Assembly: GCA_030596105.1 (NCBI GenBank)
Contig: JAUVKU010000001.1
Location: forward strand, 1-56,474
Source of the DNA: a bacterium
GTDB lineage: Bacteria > Patescibacteriota > Minisyncoccia > Minisyncoccales > DAOVPY01
DNA length: 56,474 nucleotides
Direction of reading: 5' to 3'
The notes beneath the pieces were generated by a model, which saw only the letters and a list, made by a program, of their open reading frames with translations, did not search any database and was not told the origin of the DNA. Both the position numbers and the translations under genes were made by a program. Every line of letters starts with the position of its first letter. Within the stretch, counting starts at the first letter, position 1. Shown here piece by piece: positions 4,240 to 56,474 of the stretch.

Positions 4240-5055
4240 ATGGTTTCTTTACCCCTTCCTTTAAAAATTATTAAAAAGAAAAACAACATAGCCCAATTTG
4301 AGATAGAGGGCTTATTTCCGGGATATGGCATTACTATTGCCAATAGCTTGCGCAGAGTTTTATTATCTTCTTTGCAGGGTGCGGCCATTATTCAAATAAA
4401 AACAAAAGGTGTTCAACATGAATTTTCAACCATTCCAGGAATCACCGAAGATATGCTTGCTATCATAATGAATTTAAAACAATTAAGGTTTAAATTTCAA
4501 ACAGAAGACGATGAACCAATTTCAGCTACGCTTTCCGTTAAGGGAGAAAAAGAAGTAAAGGCTTCTGATTTAAAACTTCCTTCGCAAATAAAAATTATCA
4601 ATAAAGATGCGCATATCGCTACATTAACAGATAAAAAGGCTGAATTAGAAATGGAATTAGTAATTAAAAAGGGGACTGGATACGAACCAGCAGAAAAAAG
4701 AAAAAAAGAAAAATCACCCATTGGAGCGATAGATATTGATGCGATTTTTAGTCCAGTTAACACGGTAAAATATAAAATTGAAAATATGAGGGTTGGAGAA
4801 CGAACAGATTTTGATAAATTAAATTTAGAAATTGAGACAGACGGAACGATTGGCCCACAAGAAGCTTTTGTTCGGGCGTCAGAAATTTTAATTCAACATT
4901 TTTCTTTATTATTTGATGCCACGAAAGAAAAGACGAAAACAATAAAAACAACCGAAACAAAAGAAAAAAAAGAAAAAAAAGAAAAAAAAGAAAAAAAAGA
5001 AAAAAAAGAAAAATCAATTAAAACAAAGACAAAAGAAACAAAAAAGAAAAAATAA
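4240..5055 (+). CDS. rpoA: DNA-directed RNA polymerase alpha subunit, N-terminal domain only, followed by a 44-aa Lys/Glu tail
   Basis: Alpha-NTD motifs (FEIEGLFPGYGITIANSLRRVLLSSLQGAA, RVGERTDFDKLNLEIETDG) in the rpsD-rpoA-rplQ position. No HhH alpha-CTD sequence follows; instead TKEKTKT...(EKK)n...KKKK. Confidence 0.85.
   Translation: MVSLPLPLKIIKKKNNIAQFEIEGLFPGYGITIANSLRRVLLSSLQGAAIIQIKTKGVQHEFSTIPGITEDMLAIIMNLKQLRFKFQTEDDEPISATLSVKGEKEVKASDLKLPSQIKIINKDAHIATLTDKKAELEMELVIKKGTGYEPAEKRKKEKSPIGAIDIDAIFSPVNTVKYKIENMRVGERTDFDKLNLEIETDGTIGPQEAFVRASEILIQHFSLLFDATKEKTKTIKTTETKEKKEKKEKKEKKEKKEKSIKTKTKETKKKK
4963..5013 (+). repeat. in-frame 9-nt microsatellite (GAAAAAAAA)x5 plus a partial unit, inside the rpoA tail
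   Basis: Five perfect tandem GAAAAAAAA units encode (EKK)5. Each unit carries an A8 run. Confidence 0.9.
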
Positions 5056-5077
5056 TTAATAAATTAAGTTAAGCATT

Positions 5078-6580: not shown

Positions 6581-7480
6581 ATGTCAAAACAAGAAAAATT
6601 AAAAATTGAATCAAAAGACACAAGAAAAAAATTAGAGACCAATGAAAAATTTCAAAAAAAATCTCTGGACTTTATAGAGAATCTCGCCAACAAAGAAGGG
6701 AATAATGATTGGATAGCTAAAAGTTTGGCTGGTCTTGATTCAAATAGGGCGTGGGAGATGAGAGAAAAATTGCTTGAGCAAAAAACAGATAAGGGCTATA
6801 TAGCTCAAGGTTTGGCTGGTCTTGATTCAGATAAAGCGTGGGAGATGAGAGAAAAATTGCTTAAATTGGAAACGCACAAAGGCAATATAGCCGAAGGTTT
6901 AGCTGGTCTTAAATCTGACAAGGCATGGGAGATGAGAAAAAGATTGCTTAAATTAGGAACAAATACGGGCTATTTATCTAGAAGTTTGGCTGGTCTTGAT
7001 TCAGATAAAGCGTGGAAGATGAGAAAAAAATTTCTTGATAAGGGATCTGACAAAAGCTCAATCGCTATGGGTCTATCTGGTCTTAAATCTGACAAGGCAT
7101 GGGAGATGAGAAAAAAATTGCTTGAATTAGGAACAAACAAAAATTATATTATTGAAAGCTTAATTGGTCTTAAATCTGACAAGGCATGGGAGATGAGAGA
7201 AAAAATGTCTAAAAAGGAAAAGCGCAGAGATTCCATAGCTAAAAGTTTGGCTGGTCTTGATTCAGATAGGGCATGGGAGATGAGAGAAAAATTGCTTGAG
7301 CAAGGAGCGGGCAAGGGCTATATAGCCAGGGGTTTGGCTGGTCTTGATTCAGATAGGGCATGGGAGATGAGAGAAAAATTGCTTGACAAGGGATGTCATA
7401 AAGGCGATATTTCTATGGGAGTTTATGGGAATTATATGATGGCTGGAGTTCGCAAAGCAAAAATAGATCAAAAAAAATAA
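6581..7480 (+). CDS. tandem-repeat protein, eight 29-aa helical repeats (consensus IAxSLAGLDSDKAWEMREKLLxxGxxKGY)
   Basis: 299-aa ORF with its own promoter. Eight consecutive 29-aa units are visible in the translation. I recognise no enzymatic motif. Confidence 0.75.
   Translation: MSKQEKLKIESKDTRKKLETNEKFQKKSLDFIENLANKEGNNDWIAKSLAGLDSNRAWEMREKLLEQKTDKGYIAQGLAGLDSDKAWEMREKLLKLETHKGNIAEGLAGLKSDKAWEMRKRLLKLGTNTGYLSRSLAGLDSDKAWKMRKKFLDKGSDKSSIAMGLSGLKSDKAWEMRKKLLELGTNKNYIIESLIGLKSDKAWEMREKMSKKEKRRDSIAKSLAGLDSDRAWEMREKLLEQGAGKGYIARGLAGLDSDRAWEMREKLLDKGCHKGDISMGVYGNYMMAGVRKAKIDQKK
6713..7408 (+). repeat. 87-bp tandem coding repeat x8
   Basis: Long near-identical DNA stretches recur between units, e.g. 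GTTTGGCTGGTCTTGATTCAGATAGGGCATGGGAGATGAGAGAAAAATTGCTTGA in units 1, 7 and 8. A second subtype, AAATCTGACAAGGCATGGGAGATGAGAAAAA, occurs in units 3, 5 and 6. Confidence 0.85.
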
Positions 7481-7529
7481 AGGATCAAAAATCTTTTTAG
7501 TTCTTAACTAAATACAATAGATTATTAGA

Positions 7530-9026
7530 TTAAAAAATAAATTCTTTTGAATTGTATAAACTTTGATCGCTTAATATATATATTCTTTTATTATTTGAAT
7601 TAAAAAACATTTCTAAATTTTTAAACTCAGCCAAATTATACATATTAATTCCACTCCTATCGTCAATTTCAGCAATTTTTATTTTATCTCCAACACTAAA
7701 TACCAAATAATGATCTCCGAACCAAAAACAATCTCCTATTTTTTCAGAAAATCGTGTTAAAAACACTTTCTCTTGTGCCTGTCTTTTAGGTTGACCATTT
7801 TCTTCTTCAAAAAAGAAAACCCACAATTCAAAATTGTTCAAAAAAACAATTTTTTTATTATCTGGAGAAAGCTTTACATCTCTGACAAATTCAGAGATTT
7901 TTTTAAACTTTTTTAAACTTTCATCCAAAAAATATAAAACATTGTTTTCTTTAATCAATATCCTGTTGGCAACATTGTTTATTGCATAATTCGCCTTCGA
8001 TTCAACGGCTAATGGCTCTAAGTTAAAACTTTCTAAAATCTTTCCAGTAATAGAATCGCTCTTTAAAAGAAACCCTTGATCAGATAACCAATATAGACCA
8101 TCGTCAACGCTTTTATATGCTATTAAATCGCTCAGGATTGATTCTGAAATTTCTTTTTTATTGTAGTCAACGCTGAAAAGAAAATTATTATTTTTACCCT
8201 GCTCTGTGGTTGTCACGAATTTAGTAAAAAATATTTTTTCGGAATCCTGAGCGTTAAAAGAAAAATCTTTTGCATCTGAATCTAAAAAATCTAAAAACAC
8301 GATAGAAGAAGGGTCATCTATTTCTAAAACAAGATGCATTACCTTGCCAGATGATGAATTTGCAAAAGGCCAAAGAGTTTCCAATAAAGCCTTTTCTGAA
8401 TTAGAAGAAAATTTTAAATCTAATAATTCTATATTTTTATTGCTTAATTTTGGAAAAGAAGATGCAGAGATTTCCTGAAACAAAGAATTATTTAATATAT
8501 TTTCTTCGCTTAAAAGAATTTTTTGGTTATTTTTTTCTAAATTTAAAATTTCTAAAACCCAATTATTTTGTTCTTCTGTCTTTTTGATAATTAGTTTTTT
8601 TTGATTTGGTAAAAACCAAAAATTTTCTGTATTATCTTTTAAAACAGTAAACTCAGGATTTTGTGGAATTAAAATAACATTTTTTGCTTCAGTAACCAAT
8701 TGAGCTTCTATTTCTAAAGATTTTTTCCAAGAATAATGTCCCTGTTTGCTTATCTCTATATCATAAGCTATGGGCAAAAGGTTTTTAATAAACACTGAAT
8801 CAAAGAAAAAATCTGTTTTTTCTTTAAATTTACCATTGAAGTGAATTTCAACATTTTTTGGTATAACCTTGCAATAAAATCCTCCAGTTTTGACAATTTT
8901 TATTTTAGCTGTTGACAAATCAAAATCAAAGCGATATCCACAAGAATACAAAATTATCACTGGCGCTCCTAAAAAAAGAAAAAACACACAAAGGGAAAAC
9001 AAAATTGTACGCATTTTTTTTATCAT
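7530..9026 (-). CDS. membrane-anchored PEGA-domain protein with C-terminal beta-propeller-like (TolB/WD40-like) region
   Basis: N-terminal TM helix (ILFSLCVFFLFLGAPVIILY), a PEGA-like beta-sandwich segment (...PIAYDIEISKQGHYSWKKSLEIEAQLVTEAKNVILIP), then repeated beta-strand-rich segments (LSPDNKKIVFLNNFELWVF...). Confidence 0.65.
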   Translation of the reverse strand: MIKKMRTILFSLCVFFLFLGAPVIILYSCGYRFDFDLSTAKIKIVKTGGFYCKVIPKNVEIHFNGKFKEKTDFFFDSVFIKNLLPIAYDIEISKQGHYSWKKSLEIEAQLVTEAKNVILIPQNPEFTVLKDNTENFWFLPNQKKLIIKKTEEQNNWVLEILNLEKNNQKILLSEENILNNSLFQEISASSFPKLSNKNIELLDLKFSSNSEKALLETLWPFANSSSGKVMHLVLEIDDPSSIVFLDFLDSDAKDFSFNAQDSEKIFFTKFVTTTEQGKNNNFLFSVDYNKKEISESILSDLIAYKSVDDGLYWLSDQGFLLKSDSITGKILESFNLEPLAVESKANYAINNVANRILIKENNVLYFLDESLKKFKKISEFVRDVKLSPDNKKIVFLNNFELWVFFFEEENGQPKRQAQEKVFLTRFSEKIGDCFWFGDHYLVFSVGDKIKIAEIDDRSGINMYNLAEFKNLEMFFNSNNKRIYILSDQSLYNSKEFIF

Positions 9027-9130: not shown

Positions 9131-9835
9131 ATGGACGAATTTGAAAAATGGATGGATGTTGCGGACAAAGAGTATAAAAATGGAGATTATGTTGCGTCTC
9201 GCAAAATGGCGGATTTTGCAATATTTTTCGCAAAAATGCCAAAAAATTTTGCAAAAGCTTTTAACAGAAGGGCACGAGCTAAAAGATATATCGCTTTTAA
9301 AACAGAAGATAAAATACCGAAAGAAATAATGTATATGTCGGCAAGACAAGATTGGGAGACGGTTATAAATATCTCGGGCGACATAGATGTAGAAATAAAA
9401 ATATCTGCCATAAAAGGCATAATGTTGCTTCCGGGCGAAGACATTGAACTTCTATATAATTTTGGAAACAAAATTATAGAAGATCAAGCTTCCAATTGGA
9501 AAGAAAAAAGAAACCTAATCGGGGAATTGGGAAACTCGTATGGAATTGAAGTCCGAAAAACTGACCCATTAGCCGCAAAAAGAATTTTTTTAAACCATTA
9601 TGCCTTAATTAACAAAAAAACCCTTATTGCTGGTCACTTAGCTCATAATGCCGGAACATGCTTTTTAATGCTAAGAAATGAAGAAAGCAATGAATCGGAA
9701 AAGAGATACTATCTTGCTTTATCAGCCATAAGATGGTTGCATCAAGCATTAGAAGATTACCCCGTTGATCAAGTAACGCACATAAAAACGGTTGAGAATA
9801 AAATATACGATGCAAGAGACGGAATTGAACCTTAA
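9131..9835 (+). CDS. hypothetical protein (234 aa)
   Basis: ATG 9131 is preceded by the SD-like TAAGGAGAG 8 nt upstream. The ORF-track start 8912 lies inside the convergent neighbour and is rejected. Confidence 0.6.
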   Translation: MDEFEKWMDVADKEYKNGDYVASRKMADFAIFFAKMPKNFAKAFNRRARAKRYIAFKTEDKIPKEIMYMSARQDWETVINISGDIDVEIKISAIKGIMLLPGEDIELLYNFGNKIIEDQASNWKEKRNLIGELGNSYGIEVRKTDPLAAKRIFLNHYALINKKTLIAGHLAHNAGTCFLMLRNEESNESEKRYYLALSAIRWLHQALEDYPVDQVTHIKTVENKIYDARDGIEP

Positions 9836-10825: not shown

Positions 10826-10901
10826 GGGCGGGTAGTTCAGCGGCTAGAACGCTGCTCTGATAAAGCAGAGGTCGAAGGTTCGATTCCTTCTCCGCCCACC
10901 A
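10826..10901 (+). tRNA. tRNA-Ile (anticodon GAU), CCA encoded
   Basis: Manual cloverleaf: acceptor GGGCGGG/TCCGCCC, D stem GTTC/GAAC, anticodon stem CTGCT/AGCAG with loop CTGATAA, T arm GAAGG-TTCGATT-CCTTC, discriminator A, then CCA. Confidence 0.9.
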
Positions 10902-10935
10902 AAGATTTTTTGGACACCGAGCATAGCGAGAGGTC

Positions 10936-11002
10936 ATAAAGCAGAGGTCGAAGGTTCGATTCCTTCTTTACCTAACCAAAGATTTTTTGGACACCGAGCA
11001 TA
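10936..11002 (+). pseudogene. tRNA-Ile 3'-half fragment plus duplicated trailer
   Basis: 10936-10966 is identical to 10860-10890 (anticodon loop 3' side through the T arm). The acceptor strand has diverged (TTTACCTAA). 10976-11002 is a perfect copy of the 27-nt trailer 10899-10925 (CCAAAGATTTTTTGGACACCGAGCATA). Confidence 0.8.
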
Positions 11003-11019
11003 TCCTTCTTTACCCAACA
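11003..11019 (+). pseudogene. third short tRNA 3'-end fragment
   Basis: TCCTTCTTTACCCAACA closely matches TCCTTCTTTACCTAACC at 10961-10977. Confidence 0.5.
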
Positions 11020-11034
11020 AGGATAATTTTAAAA

Positions 11035-11107
11035 GGGCCGTTGGCTCAGTTGGTAGAGCGCCTCGTTTGCAACGAGGAGGTCGCCAGTTCGAATCTGGCA
11101 CGGTCCA
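11035..11107 (+). tRNA. tRNA-Ala (anticodon UGC), CCA not encoded
   Basis: Acceptor GGGCCGT/ACGGTCC includes the G3:U70 AlaRS identity pair. D stem GCTC/GAGC, anticodon stem CCTCG/CGAGG with loop TTTGCAA, T arm GCCAG-TTCGAAT-CTGGC. Confidence 0.9.
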
Positions 11108-11262
11108 CAATAATAAATTTAACCGCCTTGCCCCCACAGGGCTCGGCGGACAAATTTATAAAAAAATCCAAAATTTTTGAAATCAATTTAGTAATGCTTG
11201 TGGACAAAATCCAAACCTTTCTTGATAATAAGTTCTAACCTTATCTGTCAAACACCAGCATA

Positions 11263-12956: not shown

Positions 12957-14108
12957 ATGACTATCGATAGTTTTTTAAACAAAAAATTGTTTTTTTCTAT
13001 TATTTTGGGCTTATTTTTAATTCCTTGTTTTGTTTTTGCTCAAAAAACAGTAGAGATTGATTTTTTTTATGGAAATGGCTGTCCGCACTGTGCTGATGAA
13101 CAAAATTTTTTGAATATTCTTGAACAAAAATATCCAGAAGTTAAAATTAATTATTATTCTATTAACGATTTAGAAAGCAGAAAATTACTAACAAGTCTTT
13201 GCGTAAAACACGATGTTAAAAAATACTTAGGATCCATACCAATGACCTTTATTAACGAAGATTTTATTTTAGGATTTAACAAAGTAGAAACAACTGGGAT
13301 AGAAATTGAAGATTCAATCAAAAGACAATTAAAACAAACGATTGAAAAAGAAAAAGAAAAAGAAAAAATTCATATCCCTATTTTAGGAGAAGTTGATGCC
13401 GAAAGATACTCTTTACCAGTTTTAACTATTATTTTGGGAACATTAGATGGATTTAATGTGTGTTCTCTTGGTGCTCTTGTTTTCATATTGGGAATGGTGC
13501 TCGCATTTCGTTCAAAGAAAAAAACCTTATTATTTGGAGGAATATTTATTATAACTTCAGCGATAACTTATGGTCTTTTGATGATACTATGGTATCAGCT
13601 CTTCTCTTTGCTTGGCGCCTACATTAAGTTTATGCACATATTAATTGGCGTAATAGCAATATCTGGAGGATTATATTTTTTCAAGCAATTTTTAAAATTC
13701 CAAAAACGTGGCGTTGTTTGCGCAATGAATCCAACGGAAGGAATAACTTCAAAACTTACCTCAAACATCCAAAAAATATTTAAAAATCCTAAAAATACTT
13801 TCACAATTATTGGAGCAACTTTAGCTTTTGCTATTCTGATAACAATTACAGAATTTCCCTGTTCAGCAATAACACCCGTTATTTATACTGGAATTTTAGC
13901 TCAGGCAGACCTATCTTCTCTTCAATATACGCTGTTTATAGCATTGTTCGTGCTTTTCTATATGATAGACGAATTTATCGTATTTTTAGTAGCCGTATTT
14001 ACGATGAAACTTTGGCTTACTTCACAAAAATTTATCACATATGCTACTTTAATTGGAGCTATCATTTTAATATCTTTAGGATCTTATTATTTATTAACAT
14101 CTATTTAA
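12957..14108 (+). CDS. secreted thioredoxin-fold (CPHC) domain fused to a CcdA/DsbD-like six-TM thiol-disulfide transporter
   Basis: Signal peptide (..LIPCFVFA|QK), Trx-like segment with GNGCPHCADEQ, then six TM helices with Cys in TM1 (GFNVCSLGA) and TM4 (EFPCSAITP), as in CcdA/DsbD-beta. Confidence 0.7.
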   Translation: MTIDSFLNKKLFFSIILGLFLIPCFVFAQKTVEIDFFYGNGCPHCADEQNFLNILEQKYPEVKINYYSINDLESRKLLTSLCVKHDVKKYLGSIPMTFINEDFILGFNKVETTGIEIEDSIKRQLKQTIEKEKEKEKIHIPILGEVDAERYSLPVLTIILGTLDGFNVCSLGALVFILGMVLAFRSKKKTLLFGGIFIITSAITYGLLMILWYQLFSLLGAYIKFMHILIGVIAISGGLYFFKQFLKFQKRGVVCAMNPTEGITSKLTSNIQKIFKNPKNTFTIIGATLAFAILITITEFPCSAITPVIYTGILAQADLSSLQYTLFIALFVLFYMIDEFIVFLVAVFTMKLWLTSQKFITYATLIGAIILISLGSYYLLTSI

Positions 14109-15899: not shown

Positions 15900-16424
15900 A
15901 TGACGATTTTAGAGATAGAAAAAATTTTGAAAAAAGATGGAATTGGAATTTTACCAACAGATACAATCTATGGATTGGTTGGTTCAGCGTTTTCTAAAAA
16001 AGCGATTGAAAAAATTTACAAAATCAAACAAAGAGAAAAAAACAAACCATTTATAATCTTAATTTCATCATTAAAAGACCTAAAATTATTTGGCATAAAA
16101 TTAGACAAAAAAAGAATTGCATTTTTGAAAAAAATATTCTTCGCGAAAACAAGCATTATATTAGAATGCCCAAATAAAAAATTTTCTTATTTACATAAAA
16201 ATAAAAATAGCTTAGCTTTCAGAATGCCCAAAGATTTATGGCTTAAAAAATTGCTTTCAAAAACTGGGCCGCTGGTAGCTCCAAGCGCAAATTTAACTGG
16301 AATGCCCCCATCTGAAACAATAAAACAGGCAAAAAAATATTTTGGAAATAAAATAGATTTTTATTTTGACAAAGGAAAAATAAAAAACAGGCCGTCTATA
16401 ATTTTAGAGATAAAAAGATTTTAA
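15900..16424 (+). CDS. tsaC: L-threonylcarbamoyladenylate synthase (TsaC/YrdC type)
   Basis: GILPTDTIYGLVG, KIKQREKNKPFIIL and GPLVAPSANLTG motifs. Confidence 0.85.
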   Translation: MTILEIEKILKKDGIGILPTDTIYGLVGSAFSKKAIEKIYKIKQREKNKPFIILISSLKDLKLFGIKLDKKRIAFLKKIFFAKTSIILECPNKKFSYLHKNKNSLAFRMPKDLWLKKLLSKTGPLVAPSANLTGMPPSETIKQAKKYFGNKIDFYFDKGKIKNRPSIILEIKRF

Positions 16425-16427
16425 ACA

Positions 16428-16603
16428 GAGATAATTGTCAAAATTCTTCCGTAACGAAATTTCAAATTTTTGAGAAAAACAAAAAAGGCAAGTAAAAGGA
16501 TTTGAACCGTAGCATCGCTACGGAGAAAATCCTTTTACACAGCCTGACGAAGTTGTAGCCAAAAATATGAAATTGTAGTAGAAAAAATTTTTACAATCAT
16601 CTC
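16428..16603 (+). repeat. structured intergenic element, type I, copy A (sense on + strand)
   Basis: Same length as, and roughly 80-85% identical by eye to, the reverse complement of 49293-49468. 18-bp closing stem GAGATAATTGTCAAAATT / AATTTTTACAATCATCTC. Central hairpin AAAAGGATTTGAA-CCGTAGC-ATC-GCTACGG-AGAAAATCCTTTT. Confidence 0.8.
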
Positions 16604-16610
16604 AAACAAT

Positions 16611-16832
16611 ATGCTAATAAAAATCAAGGCGTTTCCAAGCTCAAACAAAGAAGAAATAATCAAAAAAGAAGAAGATAGTTTTGAAATTAAAATAAAAGAG
16701 CCACCATTACAGGGAATGGCAAATAAAGCCATAATTAAAGCCCTATCTTTGTATTTCAAAATTCCCGTGAAAAAAATTAGAATGATTAAGGGCTTCAGAG
16801 AAAGAAACAAAATTTTTGATATAAATATTTAA
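16611..16832 (+). CDS. DUF167 (YggU) family protein
   Basis: IKIKAFPSSNKEEI...FEIKIKEPPLQGMANKAIIKALSLYFKIPVKKIRMIKGFRERNKIF matches the DUF167 pattern (PgA...app.dGkAN..l..fL...l......i..G..sr.K). Confidence 0.75.
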   Translation: MLIKIKAFPSSNKEEIIKKEEDSFEIKIKEPPLQGMANKAIIKALSLYFKIPVKKIRMIKGFRERNKIFDINI

Positions 16833-23913: not shown

Positions 23914-27239
<3,326 letters not shown>

Positions 27240-27327
27240 TAATTAATAATTATTTTTGCAATGAAAACACGAAGCAATACACCAACGTATTGCAACAAGA
27301 CTAAATCCGTAAAACAATCTAAAATTG

Positions 27328-27453
27328 TGGTCACTATAAGGGGGCTATACTGAGAGTGCTCCACCTGTTCCCATCCCGAACACAGAAGTGAAATCTTTCA
27401 GGGCCGATGATAGTGGTTTACCGCGAAAGTAGGTAGCTCTCTTATAGTGACCA
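27328..27453 (+). rRNA. rrf: 5S rRNA
   Basis: CCACCTGTTCCCATCCCGAACACAGAAGTGAAA...GCCGATGATAGTG...CGCGAAAGTAGG blocks. The terminal helix is TGGTCACTATAAG/CTTATAGTGACCA. Confidence 0.85.
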
Positions 27454-36723: not shown

Positions 36724-37056
36724 TTACTTGTTCATGGCTACTATTATGGCGGTAACAGCAAGAGTTAGAATAATCCCCGCAATTACCTGTACCCAAAACA
36801 TCAACGCGGTAAGCCATGTTGCCTCAATACCTGTAAATTCTGATACCCATGGCCAAATGACAAAATACATTACTAAGACTTGAATTATCACTCCGCCGAA
36901 AGGAATAATCGCCAAAAGCAATACTATGCCATAAAGCACTGCCAGAATAAGCACTGCCAACATTCCGCCAACTCCGCCGTATACGAAATACGCGGTAGCA
37001 ACAAAAAAAACCAAAATAAGCCAATCGCACCCAGTAAATCCTGTTTTTGCGTTCAT
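36724..37056 (-). CDS. small polytopic membrane protein (110 aa), hypothetical
   Basis: Three to four TM helices, strong SD GGGGGTGA, visibly higher GC than its neighbours. Confidence 0.6.
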   Translation of the reverse strand: MNAKTGFTGCDWLILVFFVATAYFVYGGVGGMLAVLILAVLYGIVLLLAIIPFGGVIIQVLVMYFVIWPWVSEFTGIEATWLTALMFWVQVIAGIILTLAVTAIIVAMNK

Positions 37057-37091
37057 TTTTTCTTTTTCACCCCCTAATTTTTTAAATAGCT

Positions 37092-41275: not shown

Positions 41276-42898
41276 CTATTTTTTTATACATGCTTTTACA
41301 AATGCTTTGAATAGTGGATGAGGATTTAATGGTCTTGATTTTAATTCTGGATGAAACTGTGTGGCAACAAAAAATGGATGATTCTTAAGTTCTATAATCT
41401 CAACCAAATCTCTTTCCGTATTAACACCTGCCATTATCATACCATGCTCCTCTAATACGCCTCTAAATGCATTATTAAGCTCGTAGCGGTGTCTATGTCG
41501 TTCAGATATGTTTAGCAACCCATAAGCTTGAAAACTCTTTGTTTTGGGCTTTATCTTACAATCATAAACGCCTAATCGCATCGTAGCGCCATATTTCTTT
41601 TCTTTTAACAACGCTTTTTGATCCGGCATAACATCAATTATAGGACTCTTGCAATTCAAAGAAATTTCAACAGAATTAGCATCTTTTATTTTACAAACAT
41701 TTCTAGCAAATTCTATCACAGCCATCTGTAATCCATAACAAAGACCAAAAAAGGGAATATTATTTTCGCGACAAAACTGAATGGCTTTTATCTTACCGCC
41801 TACCCCCCTACTCCCAAATCCTCCCGGCACTATTATGCCATCATATTTTTTAAGCTCTATAACTTTCTTTGGATTTTTTTCATATTGTTCAGCATTTATC
41901 CAATGAATTTCTGGCTTTCTGTTACATGCCCAACAAGAATGCTTAATCGCCTCAATCACCGAAATGTAACTATCTTTTAATACAAATTTTCCTGTTTCAA
42001 AATATTTTCCAACTATACCAATCTTTACTGGTTCTTTAGCTGTTTTAGCGATATTAACCATTTTAGCCCAATCCCTCAAATCACTTTTTCTTTTTGGCTT
42101 AATACCAAATTTTTTTAAAATTCTTTTTCCTAAATCATCTTTTTGAAAATTAAGCGGAACCTCATAGATTGATTCTATATCAGGAGCAGAAATAATATCA
42201 TTTTTAGAAATATTACAAAAAACTGAAATTTTTTGTTTTCGTGGTTCATCTAAAGCAACAGCTGACCGTGCCAAAATCATGTCAGGTTGAATGCCAGCGG
42301 TATTTAGCGTCCTTACCGCATATTGCGTTGGTTTGGTCTTCATTTCTCCTATTATTGAAGGCACCGGAAGATAACTTACAAGAATAAAAAATACACGTTT
42401 AGGATCTTTGAGCTTCATCATTCTAGCTGCTTCTAAAAACAACATATTTTGATATTCCCCTACCGTTCCCCCAATTTCTATCAAAATAAAATCAGCCTCT
42501 GTTTTTTTGGCTGCTTTTTTAATCCTAAAAATAACTTCATTTGGAATATCTGGAACAACCTCTACGCACTTGCCATTATATCCCAAATTCCTTTCGCGAT
42601 TTATAACTGCTTGATAAACTCTACCGGTGGTAATATAATTATCGGTGCTTAAATTTTCATCTAAAAACCGCTCATAATTTCCGAGGTCCTGATCGCTTTC
42701 AGTTCCATCGTCGGTCACAAAAACCTCTCCATGCTCAATCGGATTCATTGTCCCAGCATCAACATTAACATACGGATCAATTTTGGACGCTGTTACCTTA
42801 AAACCCATGCTCTGCAAAATTTTACCAATGGAAGCCGTAGCAACCCCTTTACCGATGCCAGACATTACTCCACCAGCAACAAAAATATAACGCGTCAT
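41276..42898 (-). CDS. pyrG: CTP synthase
   Basis: MTRYIFVAGGVMSGIGKG N-terminus and a glutamine amidotransferase domain with GLCYGLQ and HRHRYE. ATG at 42898; the ORF-track start 42922 is TTG. Confidence 0.95.
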   Translation of the reverse strand: MTRYIFVAGGVMSGIGKGVATASIGKILQSMGFKVTASKIDPYVNVDAGTMNPIEHGEVFVTDDGTESDQDLGNYERFLDENLSTDNYITTGRVYQAVINRERNLGYNGKCVEVVPDIPNEVIFRIKKAAKKTEADFILIEIGGTVGEYQNMLFLEAARMMKLKDPKRVFFILVSYLPVPSIIGEMKTKPTQYAVRTLNTAGIQPDMILARSAVALDEPRKQKISVFCNISKNDIISAPDIESIYEVPLNFQKDDLGKRILKKFGIKPKRKSDLRDWAKMVNIAKTAKEPVKIGIVGKYFETGKFVLKDSYISVIEAIKHSCWACNRKPEIHWINAEQYEKNPKKVIELKKYDGIIVPGGFGSRGVGGKIKAIQFCRENNIPFFGLCYGLQMAVIEFARNVCKIKDANSVEISLNCKSPIIDVMPDQKALLKEKKYGATMRLGVYDCKIKPKTKSFQAYGLLNISERHRHRYELNNAFRGVLEEHGMIMAGVNTERDLVEIIELKNHPFFVATQFHPELKSRPLNPHPLFKAFVKACIKK

Positions 42899-42924
42899 AT
42901 TAATATACCTTTTACGCAACAACC

Positions 42925-42960
42925 ATTTCTACTGCGATTTTAAAGTCTCGCTACGAAAAA
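42925..42960 (-). repeat. core-only copy (E) of the intergenic element family, in the pyrG leader
   Basis: The minus-strand sense TTTTTCGTAGCGAGACTTTAAAATCGCAGTAGAAAT joins the 5' module (TTCGTAGCGAGA.TT) directly to the 3' module (AAATCGCAGTAGAAA) found in copies A-D. Confidence 0.65.
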
Positions 42961-43063
42961 TTGTCACGCAACAGGTCTAACAGACGGGACCCCCCCTTTT
43001 TTTATTATATTAAATTAAATAACAAAATTTACTTAACGCCTTTCAATAATTTCAAACTATAAA

Positions 43064-43510
43064 TTATTCTTCTGCGACAATTATAACTTTTATTTCTACT
43101 TCTAAATTGTGTTCAAAAGAAATCTTTACTGGAAATTCACCTATTTCCTTAATTGGCGCGGATAAAAGAATTTTATCTTTATCAATCTTAAATCCCATTT
43201 CTTTTAATTTGTTGGAAATTTTTTGACTATTGATTGACTCAAAGAGTTGGCCATCTTCTCCAACTTTCACAGAAATCATAACTTCCAACCCATCCATTTG
43301 CGAAGCAAATTCTTGACTCTTCATAAGATCTTCTTTCATTTGCTTTGTATAAATTTCTTTTTCCGCTTCTAATTCTTTAAGGACTTCCCTTGTAGCAAGT
43401 TTCGCCATATTCTTAATAAATAAAAAATTCTTGGCATATCCATCTTTTACATCTTTGATGTCATATTTTTTTCCAAGACCTTCTACATCTTCTAAAAGAA
43501 TTACTTTCAT
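43064..43510 (-). CDS. rplI: 50S ribosomal protein L9
   Basis: [31 protein letters not shown]-terminal domain plus a C-terminal globular domain. Confidence 0.9.
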
Positions 43511-43541: not shown

Positions 43542-43703
43542 GAGAGCGTGGAACGATATGCTTTCGTAGCGAAATTTCCAAAATTTAAGACAAATTTTTC
43601 AAAAATTTTCGAAGCGTATATGGTAATATACGATGAAAAAATTTTGGGAGAATTTGGCTAAATTTTAGAAATTGCAGTAAAAATGATATCATTCTACGCT
43701 CTC
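43542..43703 (+). repeat. structured intergenic element, type II, copy C (sense on + strand, antisense to flanking genes)
   Basis: Closing stem GAGAGCGTGGAACGATAT / ATATCATTCTACGCTCTC (17/18 including a G.U pair). Internal modules TTCGTAGCGAAATTT, GTATATGGTAATATAC and GGCTAAATTTTAGAAATTGCAGTAAAAATG align with copy D. Confidence 0.75.
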
Positions 43704-43706
43704 ATC

Positions 43707-44921
43707 TTACCTTGTTTCTTTTAATAGTTCAACTGCTCTATCTAATTGCGGATCATTACCTTCTTCATAATCCTCATTAGTCATTTTAACTTCTATGTCT
43801 GGTTCAATGCCCTTACCAGCAATAAGATTTCCGTTGGGCGTCAACCATTTCGCTACTGTTATTTTAAGACTTGATCCATTTCTTAATCTTTCAAGCTCTT
43901 GAACAGAGCCCTTTCCGAAAGATGTCTCACCAATTATTTTTATGCCACAATTATCTCTAAGTGCTCCAGCCAAAATCTCGGACGCAGAAGCAGATCCTTG
44001 ATTCATTAAAACAACTATTTCAAAATCTTTAAAAGCTCCGTTTCCCTTCGCCAGATACTCCAATTTTTCTTGATCTGGTCCAAAATCTTCAATTGTAACA
44101 ATCTGATCTTTCTCCAAAAACCAACCAGCAATATATTGAGAAACCTCTAAATAACCACCTGGATTATTACGAAGATCCAAAATAATTTTCTTGGCTGAAG
44201 TATTTAAAATTTTCACACTCGCTGTTTGAAACGCAGAGCCCGTTGTTCCTAAAAACTGATAAAGTCTCATATAAACAATTGGATCAGCTTCAGTATCATC
44301 TTCAAGCAATTCCCATTTAATAGAAGGCATTTCTATTATGCCTCTAATAATCTTAATTTCTTGCGTCTTTTCCCAGCCATTTCTAGCAATTGTCAAAACA
44401 ACTTCAGTTCCTTTTGGTCCCCTAATAAGATGGACAGCTTCATCAATAGTGAGGTCCCGAGTATGCTCATCTCCAACTTTGAAAATCTTATCTCCTGCCC
44501 TAAGTCCTGCTTTCTGCGCTGGAGTTCCCTCTAAAGGAGCGATGACTTGAAGCTGATCATTTCTTATGCCTATTTCCATACCAACACCCTCAAAAACCCC
44601 GCTAACATCTTCAAAAAACTGATTAGTTTCTTCGGGTGGCATAAATATGGTATACGGGTCATCTAAACTTTCAACCATTCCCGAAATGGCTCCATAAATC
44701 ATTTTTTCGTGATCAAATTCTTCCCGTCCAACATATTTTTTTTCAAGAACATTATAGCTCTCCCAGAAAAGAGAAAGATCAATTTTTCCTGCAGGAGATA
44801 CTAATTCCATTCCCTTATAAATCCCCCCTTCCTCACCACAATAAAAACCAAGAAAAAAAGAAAACAAAATAGTTCCAATTAAAAAGATAAATTTGAATGT
44901 TTTTATATTTAAAAAACGCAT
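43707..44921 (-). CDS. S41-family C-terminal processing peptidase with PDZ domain
   Basis: N-terminal anchor, PDZ (GMEIGIRNDQLQVIAPLEGTPAQKAGLRAGDKI), catalytic GSASASEI and TSFGKGSVQ. Confidence 0.9.
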   Translation of the reverse strand: MRFLNIKTFKFIFLIGTILFSFFLGFYCGEEGGIYKGMELVSPAGKIDLSLFWESYNVLEKKYVGREEFDHEKMIYGAISGMVESLDDPYTIFMPPEETNQFFEDVSGVFEGVGMEIGIRNDQLQVIAPLEGTPAQKAGLRAGDKIFKVGDEHTRDLTIDEAVHLIRGPKGTEVVLTIARNGWEKTQEIKIIRGIIEMPSIKWELLEDDTEADPIVYMRLYQFLGTTGSAFQTASVKILNTSAKKIILDLRNNPGGYLEVSQYIAGWFLEKDQIVTIEDFGPDQEKLEYLAKGNGAFKDFEIVVLMNQGSASASEILAGALRDNCGIKIIGETSFGKGSVQELERLRNGSSLKITVAKWLTPNGNLIAGKGIEPDIEVKMTNEDYEEGNDPQLDRAVELLKETR

Positions 44922-55319: not shown

Positions 55320-56474
55320 TTAAGATTTCCAGATATTCCGTAATTTTTCGCTAGCCTTAATCTGTCCAACTTTCATTTCAAGAATCTTTTTAGCTTTATA
55401 CTCAAAGCATTCTTTTCTTCTAGAGGCCAACCATTTTTCAAAAACTATAATACGAGATCTAAAAAACCAAATTAATGATAATGCCATTGATAAGGGCAAG
55501 AAAAACGAATCTAATAGAATATTATTTGTGAGACCAGTAGAAACTTCTGTGGCAGCTCCAGCAACTTGCTTTTTATTTACAACGACACTCGCTATATCCG
55601 TAATAGAGCTATCAAAATTATAAACCAAAACAGTATTAATAAGCGTAGTCTCTCCGAAAACAAACTGATTTGATCCTGCTACTTGAACCTTAAAATCTAT
55701 TCTCTTTGTTTGACCAACAGCCAAATCACCTATATCCAATCCAGAAAATATATTGCCACTTGAAGAAACATCATCTATCTTCAAATCCCCCATATAAATA
55801 AGATTGTCTGGTAAGGTATCCTGAACAATAACATTCTGTACAGACAAAGAATTATCTCCAATAACCTTAACTCTGAAATAAAGTATTTCTCCTGGATCAG
55901 CTGAAACTGAATGTACCCACGATGTTCCATTAGAATAATTCTTAACTAATTTATTAATCGTAAAAACAGGAATAACTTGCTGATTTTCAACATTAACAGT
56001 CATACTATGACTAGTAGAACCTCCTAAACCCGTACAAGTCATTGTATAAGTTCTTACAGAAGTTAAACTTCCTGTTGATTGTGATCCGCTAGTAGACTTT
56101 GTTCCTGACCAACCACCAGATGCATAACAAGTGTTAGCATTTGTTGATGTCCAAGTTAAATTAGCTGAACCATTGTATCCAATAGTTATTGAACCATTTG
56201 AATTGTTTGCTTTAATGTCAACTGTTGGAGCAACTGGCTGATTTTGAACATTAACAACAACGCTATCACTAACAGAACCTCCAGCACCTGTACAATTTAT
56301 TGTATAAGTTCTTGTAGAAGTTAAACTTCCTGTTGATTCTGATCCACTCGTGCTTTTTGTTCCTGACCAACCACCAGATGCATAACAAGTGTTAGCATTT
56401 GTTGATGTCCAAGTTAAATTAGCTGAACCATTGTATCCAATAGTTATTGAACCATTTGAATTGTTTGCTTTAAT
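55320..56474 (-). CDS. cell-surface repeat protein, C-terminal part (5' end outside window): Ig-like 86-aa repeats, DUF11-like domain, C-terminal TM anchor
   Basis: The frame stays open upstream of the ORF-track Met to the window edge. There are two 86-aa repeats (DIKANNSNGSITIGYNGSANLTWTSTNANTCYASGGWSGTK...TYTINCTGAGGS). These are followed by a DPGEILYFRVKV...VQDTLPDNL...VGQTKRIDFKVQV domain and then a hydrophobic anchor (FFLPLSMALSLIWFF) with a basic tail. Confidence 0.75.
   Translation of the reverse strand: MKANNSNGSITIGYNGSANLTWTSTNANTCYASGGWSGTKSTSGSESTGSLTSTRTYTINCTGAGGSVSDSVVVNVQNQPVAPTVDIKANNSNGSITIGYNGSANLTWTSTNANTCYASGGWSGTKSTSGSQSTGSLTSVRTYTMTCTGLGGSTSHSMTVNVENQQVIPVFTINKLVKNYSNGTSWVHSVSADPGEILYFRVKVIGDNSLSVQNVIVQDTLPDNLIYMGDLKIDDVSSSGNIFSGLDIGDLAVGQTKRIDFKVQVAGSNQFVFGETTLINTVLVYNFDSSITDIASVVVNKKQVAGAATEVSTGLTNNILLDSFFLPLSMALSLIWFFRSRIIVFEKWLASRRKECFEYKAKKILEMKVGQIKASEKLRNIWKS
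56044..56474 (-). repeat. 258-bp tandem coding repeat (at least 1.7 units, truncated by the window edge)
   Basis: 56101-56216 is identical (116/116 by eye) to 56359-56474. The remaining part of the unit is about 85% identical. Confidence 0.85.

Follow-up and report, generated by a model that had tools for sequence, protein, structure and literature searches.

A family of palindromic insertions with a strand-specific fold in genomes of the Candidate Phyla Radiation

Several families of small palindromic repeats occupy the spaces between bacterial genes. Enterobacterial repetitive intergenic consensus (ERIC) sequences, also called intergenic repeat units (IRU), are imperfect palindromes of about 127 bp found in Enterobacteriaceae and Vibrio, and the hairpin that they form in RNA may influence the processing and stability of mRNA; we know of no transposase for them. 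The Correia elements of Neisseria, or NEMIS, are hairpin repeats of 100-160 bp that end in conserved inverted repeats of 26 bp and duplicate a TA target. They are co-transcribed, their transcripts are substrates of RNase III, and to our knowledge no cognate transposase has been identified. The host range of both families lies in the Proteobacteria. Repetitive extragenic palindromes (REP) are GC-rich, 20-40 nt long, and carry a 5' GTAG (or CGTC) tag; the GTAG tag is recognised by RAYT, a cognate Y1 protein whose gene is in the genome and usually flanked by REP repeats. A REPIN is an inverted doublet of REPs, and REP and REPIN sequences form near-identical populations within a genome that persist for long times. 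Here we describe a family of palindromically closed repeats with five copies (A to E) in a stretch of 56,474 nt from a bacterium of the Patescibacteriota (contig JAUVKU010000001.1 of assembly GCA_030596105.1). This whole stretch is called the window below.

Genomes of Patescibacteria, or the Candidate Phyla Radiation (CPR), combine small size with very short intergenic spacers and are considered to contain little mobile DNA, so that a repeat reaching five copies in 56 kb, within chaperone and ribosomal-protein operons, was unexpected. In its behaviour the family is closest to the ERIC, Correia and REPIN repeats. We lean towards reading it as a non-autonomous, horizontally spread insertion element of CPR bacteria that is recognised in single-stranded form.

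Like ERIC sequences, the copies are small non-coding imperfect palindromes in transcribed spacers, in either orientation, and the sequence is conserved across genera at differing locations. Unlike them, they belong to another host phylum, differ in sequence and length, have a lineage-variable closing stem around an invariant asymmetric internal loop, are spread across phylum-level CPR lineages and lack a visible TA duplication. Correia elements are likewise hairpin-forming repeats inserted close to genes, but the present family has variable termini, no visible duplication and a strand-specific fold. For both ERIC and Correia the distinction was drawn from their general descriptions. With REP sequences, BIMEs and REPINs the family has in common the extragenic palindromes, the structural, strand-specific recognition, the GTAG motif, the absence of target duplication and long-lived populations of near-identical copies within a genome; it differs in being a single AT-rich rod in place of a short GC-rich palindrome or an inverted doublet, with all of its GTAGs on one strand. 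Integron attC sites are also imperfect palindromes between genes, variable in sequence and recognised as a folded single strand with unpaired bases. Their ends carry conserved 7-bp R''/R' boxes (RYYYAAC / GTTRRRY), and they lie in a fixed orientation downstream of the cassette ORFs, whereas our copies end in GAGA.., AGACC.. or GGGAC.., lie in random orientation and have housekeeping neighbours (dnaK, grpE, rplI, pyrG, tsaC). The RNase III sites of phage T7 are hairpins between the cistrons of one transcript, in which double-stranded stems enclose an internal loop that is conserved and asymmetric; they are only about 50-60 nt long, not mobile and always in sense orientation, and the resemblance is a functional analogy only.

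Anatomy and covariation of the fold

All copies follow one plan, an AT-rich rod of about 165 nt with 30-40% GC. In what follows, the sense strand is the one carrying GUARCGA. The rod is closed by a 24-bp helix, P1, which outward from the internal loop (IL1) consists of an invariant UUUC/GAAA adjoining the loop, a small irregularity and 18 more pairs. This irregularity takes the form of a 2x2 mismatch in one register class and of a 1-nt bulge on the 3' side in the other, and the two classes are about equally large. Over 153 distinct sites, P1 positions 6-23 are 84-99% paired, with three to four Watson-Crick pair types nearly everywhere, and pairing collapses to 31-58% from position 24 outward. 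The helix thus has a sharp end, and is longer than the 18-20 bp read from the window sequence alone. Its sequence is free and specific to the lineage or subfamily (AGACC.., GGGAC.., GGAAC.., GAGGTC.., GATAC.., GAGAG.., GAGAT..), so that the outermost 18 bp are the variable part of the element and the conserved part lies 24 bp inside.

IL1 is asymmetric, with 5'-GUARCGA opposite 5'-GYAGUA, and is invariant in the alignment except at R and Y. R is partnered by U (A-U in 28 cases, G·U in 26), and the next pair switches from A-U to G-C with compensation. At the DNA level the two subterminal sites, GTARCGA and the complement of GYAGTA, differ consistently from each other. Above IL1 follow P2, of about 14 bp, then P3, a GA-rich loop and P4; P2 to P4 are co-varying helices set apart by purine-rich loops. 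Many copies have a second internal loop, IL2 (GAGCGAGRCRAAG / CAAAGYCGYAGCC), above P2, and by eye a GUAGC theme is repeated there on the opposite strand, giving P2 a pseudo-dyad. The tetranucleotide GTAG stands at fixed places of the sense strand, namely the 5' strand of IL1 (GTAG or GTAA), its 3' strand and, in many copies, the 3' strand of IL2, which makes two to three occurrences per element, always on the same strand and without an inverted doublet. By eye, the loop was compared with a K-turn, a sarcin-ricin loop, a hairpin ribozyme and attC, none of which seems to fit.

The minimal unit is P1 with IL1, and copy E, which has little else, demonstrates that it can stand alone. This copy had been described as a core-only fragment at 42925-42960; it extends beyond these limits on both sides and has its own closing stem of about 22 bp, rich in G·U pairs. 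The central hairpin is not a module of the whole family but an apical extension specific to the A/B type, which also occurs in two other loci (L037 and L059, 5386-5566).

Covariation was counted in an alignment of 22 diverse homologues from one register class, made with MAFFT and not fitted to a structure. Since the two register classes differ by the 1-nt bulge after GAAA, RNAalifold overlooked P1 when all sequences were simply aligned with MAFFT, and a same-register seed alignment was used instead. The alignment made by the covariance model (CM) mixed sense and antisense hits and was left out of the counts. In 43 of 54 pairs both sides had changed in a compensatory manner. Paired cells amounted to 95.5%, compared with 78% in shuffles and 36-49% when partners were slid by 1-3 columns, and none of 500 shuffles matched any observed covariation measure; as the sequences are related, the shuffle figures overstate independence and are not probabilities. 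The slid-partner controls retain this relatedness and still fall short. The stems are under selection for pairing, as the sequence-only reading had argued from compensatory changes on both arms.

The fold belongs to one strand. Folding energy was lower on the sense strand in 67 of 69 copies and at 150 of 151 distinct sites, with a mean gap of about 12 kcal/mol. The gap was similar for copies co-directional with their genes (-12.9 kcal/mol) and for antisense copies (-11.5 kcal/mol), and is thus independent of orientation. Homologues matched the CM with 33-180 bits, always much higher on the sense strand. Within P1, 121 G·U pairs stand against 51 A·C mismatches, whereas the two are about equal in the flanks, and at some fixed columns of the 22-sequence alignment most sequences have G·U. 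Together, the energy gap, the CM scores and the G·U excess disfavour a symmetric double-stranded signal or a DNA cruciform. What is conserved is one folded strand, either RNA or single-stranded DNA (ssDNA). Accordingly, the earlier proposal of a folded RNA or DNA cruciform holds with regard to a selected fold and is disfavoured with regard to a symmetric cruciform.

These observations bear on one alternative, an ordinary MITE (miniature inverted-repeat transposable element) acting at the DNA level, in which the arms would be terminal inverted repeats for a DDE transposase. The matched changes would then stem from gene conversion or from quasi-palindrome correction, that is, template switching, which copies a change from one palindrome arm to the other. 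The family is indeed small, non-coding, multi-copy, intergenic and palindromic, with subfamilies and presence/absence polymorphism. However, conserved termini and target duplication, which would be expected of a MITE, are not seen: the termini are the least conserved part. Arm-to-arm correction would erase the consistent asymmetry of the subterminal sites, the G·U excess and sense-only stability are unexpected for double-stranded recognition, and no transposase was found beside any of about 150 sites. Quasi-palindrome correction could contribute to the matching of the arms but cannot explain the asymmetry or the G·U excess. We consider a MITE of this kind quite unlikely.

An unfiltered CM scan of the window recovered exactly copies A to E (Table 1), the five copies counted before, and all other matches stayed at or below 21 bits. 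Five occurrences each of the 5' module TTYCGTARCGARATTT and of the 3' module GAAATYGYAGTAGAAA were counted in the window, compared with 0.97 and 0.27 expected by chance, respectively. Copies A to D each fold end to end into one imperfect hairpin (z of -7.7 to -9.3 against shuffles); copy E folds with -25.9 kcal/mol in sense and a shorter antisense construct with -7.4 kcal/mol. Sequence comparison agrees with two further claims of the sequence-only reading, that A and B are inverted copies of equal length (83% identical over 186 nt) and that C and D share the end modules of the family. Several subfamilies (A/B, C, D and E) coexist in one genome, as is also the case in the genome of locus L059.

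Table 1. Copies of the element in the window, with the parts of copy A and the flanking genes
Feature	Position	Strand	Description	CM score	Flanking genes and placement
Copy A	16428-16603	+	176 nt, 'GAGAT' subtype, extended apical hairpin	67.7 bits sense, 21 bits antisense	tsaC (Sua5/YrdC) 15900-16424; DUF167 gene 16611-16832; co-directional with both
Copy A, P1 5' arm	16428-16450	+	last base is the anchor C of UUCC
Copy A, IL1 5' strand	16451-16457	+	GTAACGA (= GUARCGA)
Copy A, apical hairpin	16492-16538	+	A/B-subtype-specific, GTAAAAGGATTT..CCGTAGC-ATC-GCTACGG..AAATCCTTTTAC
Copy A, IL1 3' strand	16575-16580	+	GTAGTA (= GYAGUA)
Copy A, P1 3' arm	16581-16603	+	GAAA and stem
Copy E	42902-42979	-	mini element: P1 (many G·U), IL1 and 10-nt loop only	45.4 bits	rplI; pyrG 41276-42898; ends about 3 nt before pyrG ATG
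Copy C	43542-43703	+	162 nt	90.9 bits	ctpA-like S41 peptidase gene 43707-44921 (-); rplI 43064-43510 (-); antisense to both
Copy B	49293-49468	-	176 nt, subtype as A	85.9 bits	DUF3467 gene 49500-49793; dnaK 47290-49284; ends 8 nt before dnaK ATG
Copy D	49800-49960	-	161 nt	104.4 bits	grpE 49994-50482; DUF3467 gene; ends 6 nt before DUF3467-gene ATG

Insertion sites, orientation and host range

The window organism is itself a Parcubacterium, and the named sources of the homologues include Minisyncoccales and Nealsonbacteria; exact look-ups of the window's proteins matched no record. The closest available relative of the window organism (locus L067, assembly GCA_030628945.1) has the same gene order and a DnaK 84% identical to that of the window, the level of the nearest homologue. 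In this relative, sites B, D, C and E are empty: the spacers read grpE-19 nt-DUF3467-37 nt-dnaK and ctpA-14 nt-rplI-15 nt-pyrG. Site B is also empty in a second relative (L068). In a third (L069), sites C and D are empty, the spacers equivalent to B and E are longer (two tRNA genes and AT-rich sequence, respectively) and contain no element, and no copy was found in 22 kb. Likewise, the site of the copy in locus L041 is empty in L014. The empty syntenic sites show that the copies are insertions, as opposed to conserved cis-regulatory RNAs or classical small RNA (sRNA) genes. Two side observations were made at these loci: the tRNA genes in the DUF3467-dnaK spacer of L069 lie at 9655-9815, and in L067 an open reading frame (ORF) of LAGLIDADG type follows dnaJ at 13221-14057.

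A further locus (L044, 1647-2461) has a cupin gene bracketed by two copies in inverted orientation, both of which are missing in the relatives L199 and L200. Where the upstream copy was inserted, a glycosyltransferase gene has lost its final four codons and takes its stop codon from the copy; insertions are thus not strictly intergenic. Exact removal of the copy restores the K-T-S reading frame of the orthologue, which leaves no room for a 2-nt duplication. Bases outside AGACC...GGTCT vary as complements (T/A, A/T, C/G; AA..TT, CA..TG) and not as direct repeats, indicating extension of the helix as opposed to target duplication. No target-site duplication was visible at the junctions examined, a handful in AT-rich sequence, and the sole direct repeat at a junction was AAACA..AAACA flanking copy A.

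Where genes were called on both sides, 40 copies were co-directional with both, 39 antisense to both and 44 mixed; in a first sample the counts were 21, 20 and 19. Orientation relative to the flanking genes is random, and even over 7 kb of the window both orientations are seen (E-, C+, B-, D-). The sequence-only reading had set a selected fold and a MITE-like, randomly oriented repeat against each other as alternatives. Both hold, since orientation is random, yet covariation is strong. The copies take up the entire spacer, in many cases abutting or overlapping a stop codon and leaving a few nucleotides to the next start codon.

Two of the copies, B and D, belong to the grpE-DUF3467-dnaK operon, and the distance to the following start codon is 3-8 nt for A, B, D and E, so that a long hairpin would occlude the initiation region. 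Such a placement could suggest an RNA that regulates the downstream gene in cis, for instance as a thermometer or attenuator in the grpE-dnaK heat-shock operon. This idea is largely refuted and we give it hardly any weight: the flanking genes are unrelated across 150 sites, half of the copies are antisense, relatives have the same operon without the element, and proximity to start codons follows from the spacers of 15-40 nt typical of these genomes. A CIRCE or other heat-shock operator was considered and rejected as well, because of a mismatch in sequence and because most sites have no relation to chaperones.

When flanking ORFs, first 502 and later 1479, were clustered by BLASTP, no recurrent neighbour family emerged, which argues that the element is non-autonomous. 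The largest cluster was an artefact of ORFs running through the element, the next, from about 7 distinct contigs, was a small GIY-YIG protein at a distance of about 1.8 kb, and the remainder were housekeeping genes. No transposase and no ORF-bearing version of the element adjoined any of about 150 sites. An IS200 TnpA probe (tblastn and phmmer) had no match in 1.34 Mb of element-bearing loci, a weak negative, and neither this probe nor the clustering revealed a RAYT-like gene near any copy. No promoter motif stood at a fixed distance from the element, and promoter-like matches were at chance level. A -10-like hexamer (TATAAT/TATATT) on the antisense strand abuts the 3' end at about 16% of 149 sites, against 1-2% in the background; this is partly the palindrome running on, and could reflect a target preference or an outward-facing promoter. 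None of the calls of intrinsic terminators coincided with copies A to D, and the flanks after P1 are not T runs.

The host range was determined by a scan of 185,579 species-representative genomes of all phyla, one per species, with the motif CGTARCGARAYTT-N(85-115)-RAAATYGYAGTARAAA. This strict scan gave 66 loci in about 45 metagenome-assembled genomes (MAGs), with up to six loci per MAG, and strict motif searches yielded more than 150 further sites. Among the Parcubacteria, hosts were found in Nealson-, Yanofsky-, Staskawicz-, Portnoy-, Lipton-, Yonath-, Moran- and Gribaldobacteria. Other hosts belong to the Magasanik-, Falkow-, Uhr-, Kuenen-, Doudna-, Peregrini- and Saccharibacteria, and three to the Elusimicrobia; two MAGs labelled Gammaproteobacteria/Lysobacteraceae may be mis-binned. 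A metagenome scan added at least 120 contigs with the motif. Viral contigs (motif scan) and phage and plasmid collections (blastn) gave no match.

No Rfam 15 family, including 6S, Y RNA, SRP, ribozymes and thermometers, reached its gathering threshold in the window, in agreement with the initial failure to recognise a known RNA. At E<=10, the window copies and the best-scoring homologue matched only generic hairpin, snoRNA and miRNA models, far below threshold. Literature searches by topic and by sequence strings did not find a description of the family, which is apparently undescribed so far.

Some genomes hold the element in composite form. In Peregrinibacteria JACPHH01 (L004, L013, L021, L038, L039, L050) the hairpin is embedded in a composite repeat of about 290 nt, copies of which are 91-95% identical within one MAG. 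Its outer arms, AGAGGGCGGGGAC / GTCCCCGCCCTCTTTTT, resemble an intrinsic terminator, and this composite is the only form with a terminator-like outer stem. The left part holds TTTTCGCTACG, the reverse complement of the 5' strand of IL1, and an 87-nt left module is also found alone. A second type of small GC-rich hairpin (e.g. CCCTGCCTGCCGGTAGGCAGGC) is nested in the element in L001 (about 1210-1235), L019 (about 2480-2500), L025 (about 1710-1990) and L064 (about 2600-2780), in L025 and L064 directly after CGTAACGA of the conserved loop. These genomes thus hold several families of hairpin repeats that insert into each other.

Possible modes of spread and retention

One copy could be followed between species. 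The copy between leuS and tsaC in L061, a MAG labelled as Saccharibacteria, is present at the same site in the species of L190-L193 (TsaC 86% identical). No copy is present in relatives with 79-81% identity, in which the neighbours at this place are different. Element and spacer are 95.3% identical between the two species, compared with 85.5% for leuS, 82.6% for tsaC, about 70% for third codon positions and 63-74% for fourfold-degenerate sites. One of the eight differences is a compensated change from A-U to G-C in P1. The copy is under purifying selection in place, evolves in concert with other copies, or both.

Strong constraint on an orthologous copy would also be expected if the copies were duplicated and spread genes of trans-acting, protein-binding sRNAs, rod-shaped like the 6S, Y and signal recognition particle (SRP) RNAs, with IL1 as the protein-binding site. 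Conserved loops between co-varying helices, conserved G·U pairs, a sense-only fold and a fixed helix length agree with this idea. Genes of this kind should not, however, lack an associated promoter or terminator, abut or overlap stop and start codons, be restricted to about 45 of 185,579 genomes and missing from close relatives, reach the density seen in the window, or nest into composite repeats. We therefore regard sRNA genes as an unlikely explanation.

The absence of target duplication, together with the GTAG motifs, points to chemistry of the HUH/RAYT type. An element of REP/REPIN-RAYT or IS200/IS605 type would be mobilised as ssDNA, with a Y1 HUH enzyme cutting and joining the folded top strand without target duplication; this is the DNA version of the single-strand recognition that we favour. 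The strand-specific fold that tolerates G·T pairs, GTAG at two or three fixed places of the sense strand, and the nesting of other small GC-rich hairpins in some genomes are in line with it. Membership in this group is not supported by the size (4-8 times that of REP), by GTAGs that all lie on one strand without a doublet of inverted, GTAG-tagged REPs, or by the IS200 TnpA probe described above. The mixed, random orientation is also unlike the lagging-strand bias of IS608-type elements. To us, this version appears improbable.

Returning to a non-autonomous element recognised in single-stranded form, we suggest that its copying depends on a trans-acting factor encoded elsewhere, which would recognise IL1 in the folded strand, RNA or ssDNA, and act at a fixed helical distance, at the foot of P1. 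A factor reading IL1 and acting there would explain why loop and helix length are invariant and the termini variable. Once inserted, a copy would be co-transcribed with the operon as a long double-stranded hairpin and should serve as a determinant of RNase III-type processing or of stability, placed 3-9 nt from start codons. Inserted copies probably influence processing, stability or initiation, and such an effect on the host, or concerted evolution, would account for the conserved orthologous copy.

Several points weigh against this reading. A mobilising enzyme was not found in searches of element-bearing loci, and a recent transposition event, with the same flanks with and without the element, was not caught. 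The few, AT-rich junctions behind the missing target duplication and the relatedness of the aligned sequences, both mentioned above, belong here as well. The leuS-tsaC copy is strongly conserved, whereas selfish copies should decay in place; its conservation fits a host function better than pure selfishness, although the constraint was seen in one orthologous pair only, co-directional with its genes, and may be due to concerted evolution. A host function has its own difficulty, because random orientation means that about half of the copies are transcribed as the antisense strand without the conserved loops, and an RNA-level role for IL1 in the host cannot cover all copies. RNase III processing is something we infer.

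A bolder version is possible, but we hold it only tentatively. The family may represent a new class of mobile structured nucleic acid, in which a dedicated protein would read the loop, as RNA or as ssDNA, and excise or insert the element at the foot of the helix, found by measuring off 24 bp. With its conserved loops set in a rod of variable sequence, the element is built more like viroid-like or protein-scaffold RNAs than like the ends of transposons. It would have spread across phylum-level CPR lineages and Elusimicrobia, with some copies retained by the hosts as operon-processing modules.

The invariant asymmetric loop, the helix of fixed length and free sequence, and the strand-specific fold provide a handle for finding the reading factor; candidates are a new mobilisation enzyme and a protein that binds RNA and is confined to these uncultivated bacteria. 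The family is a candidate for a new entry in Rfam or in a repeat library. Its covariance model lets annotators mask or label sites that otherwise give rise to spurious ORFs and altered gene ends.

Other features of the window

Additional observations concern other parts of the window. The 23S rRNA gene (23916-27445) has 3324 nt compared with a model of 2925 nt, hence contains insertions, and is followed by 5S. Genes for tRNA-Ile(GAT) and tRNA-Ala(TGC), whose usual place is the spacer between 16S and 23S, are at 10826-11108, 13 kb upstream of the 23S gene with protein ORFs between them; the 16S gene is not in the window. An 87-nt tandem repeat with at least 8 copies of 64-76% identity (6626-7534) lies in ORF 6581-7480 and encodes a protein of 29-residue repeats. 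An (A8G)n run at 4929-5064 encodes the lysine-rich tail at the end of ORF 4240-5055. At 55969-56474, up to the window end, a 248-nt direct repeat is present in two adjacent copies with 89% identity. Finally, a 41-nt repeat (37036-37076 and 54531-54571, 85% identical; coding strand TAGGGGGTGAAAAAGAAAAAATGAA) comprises the leader and start of two minus-strand genes, which thus share a ribosome-binding region.

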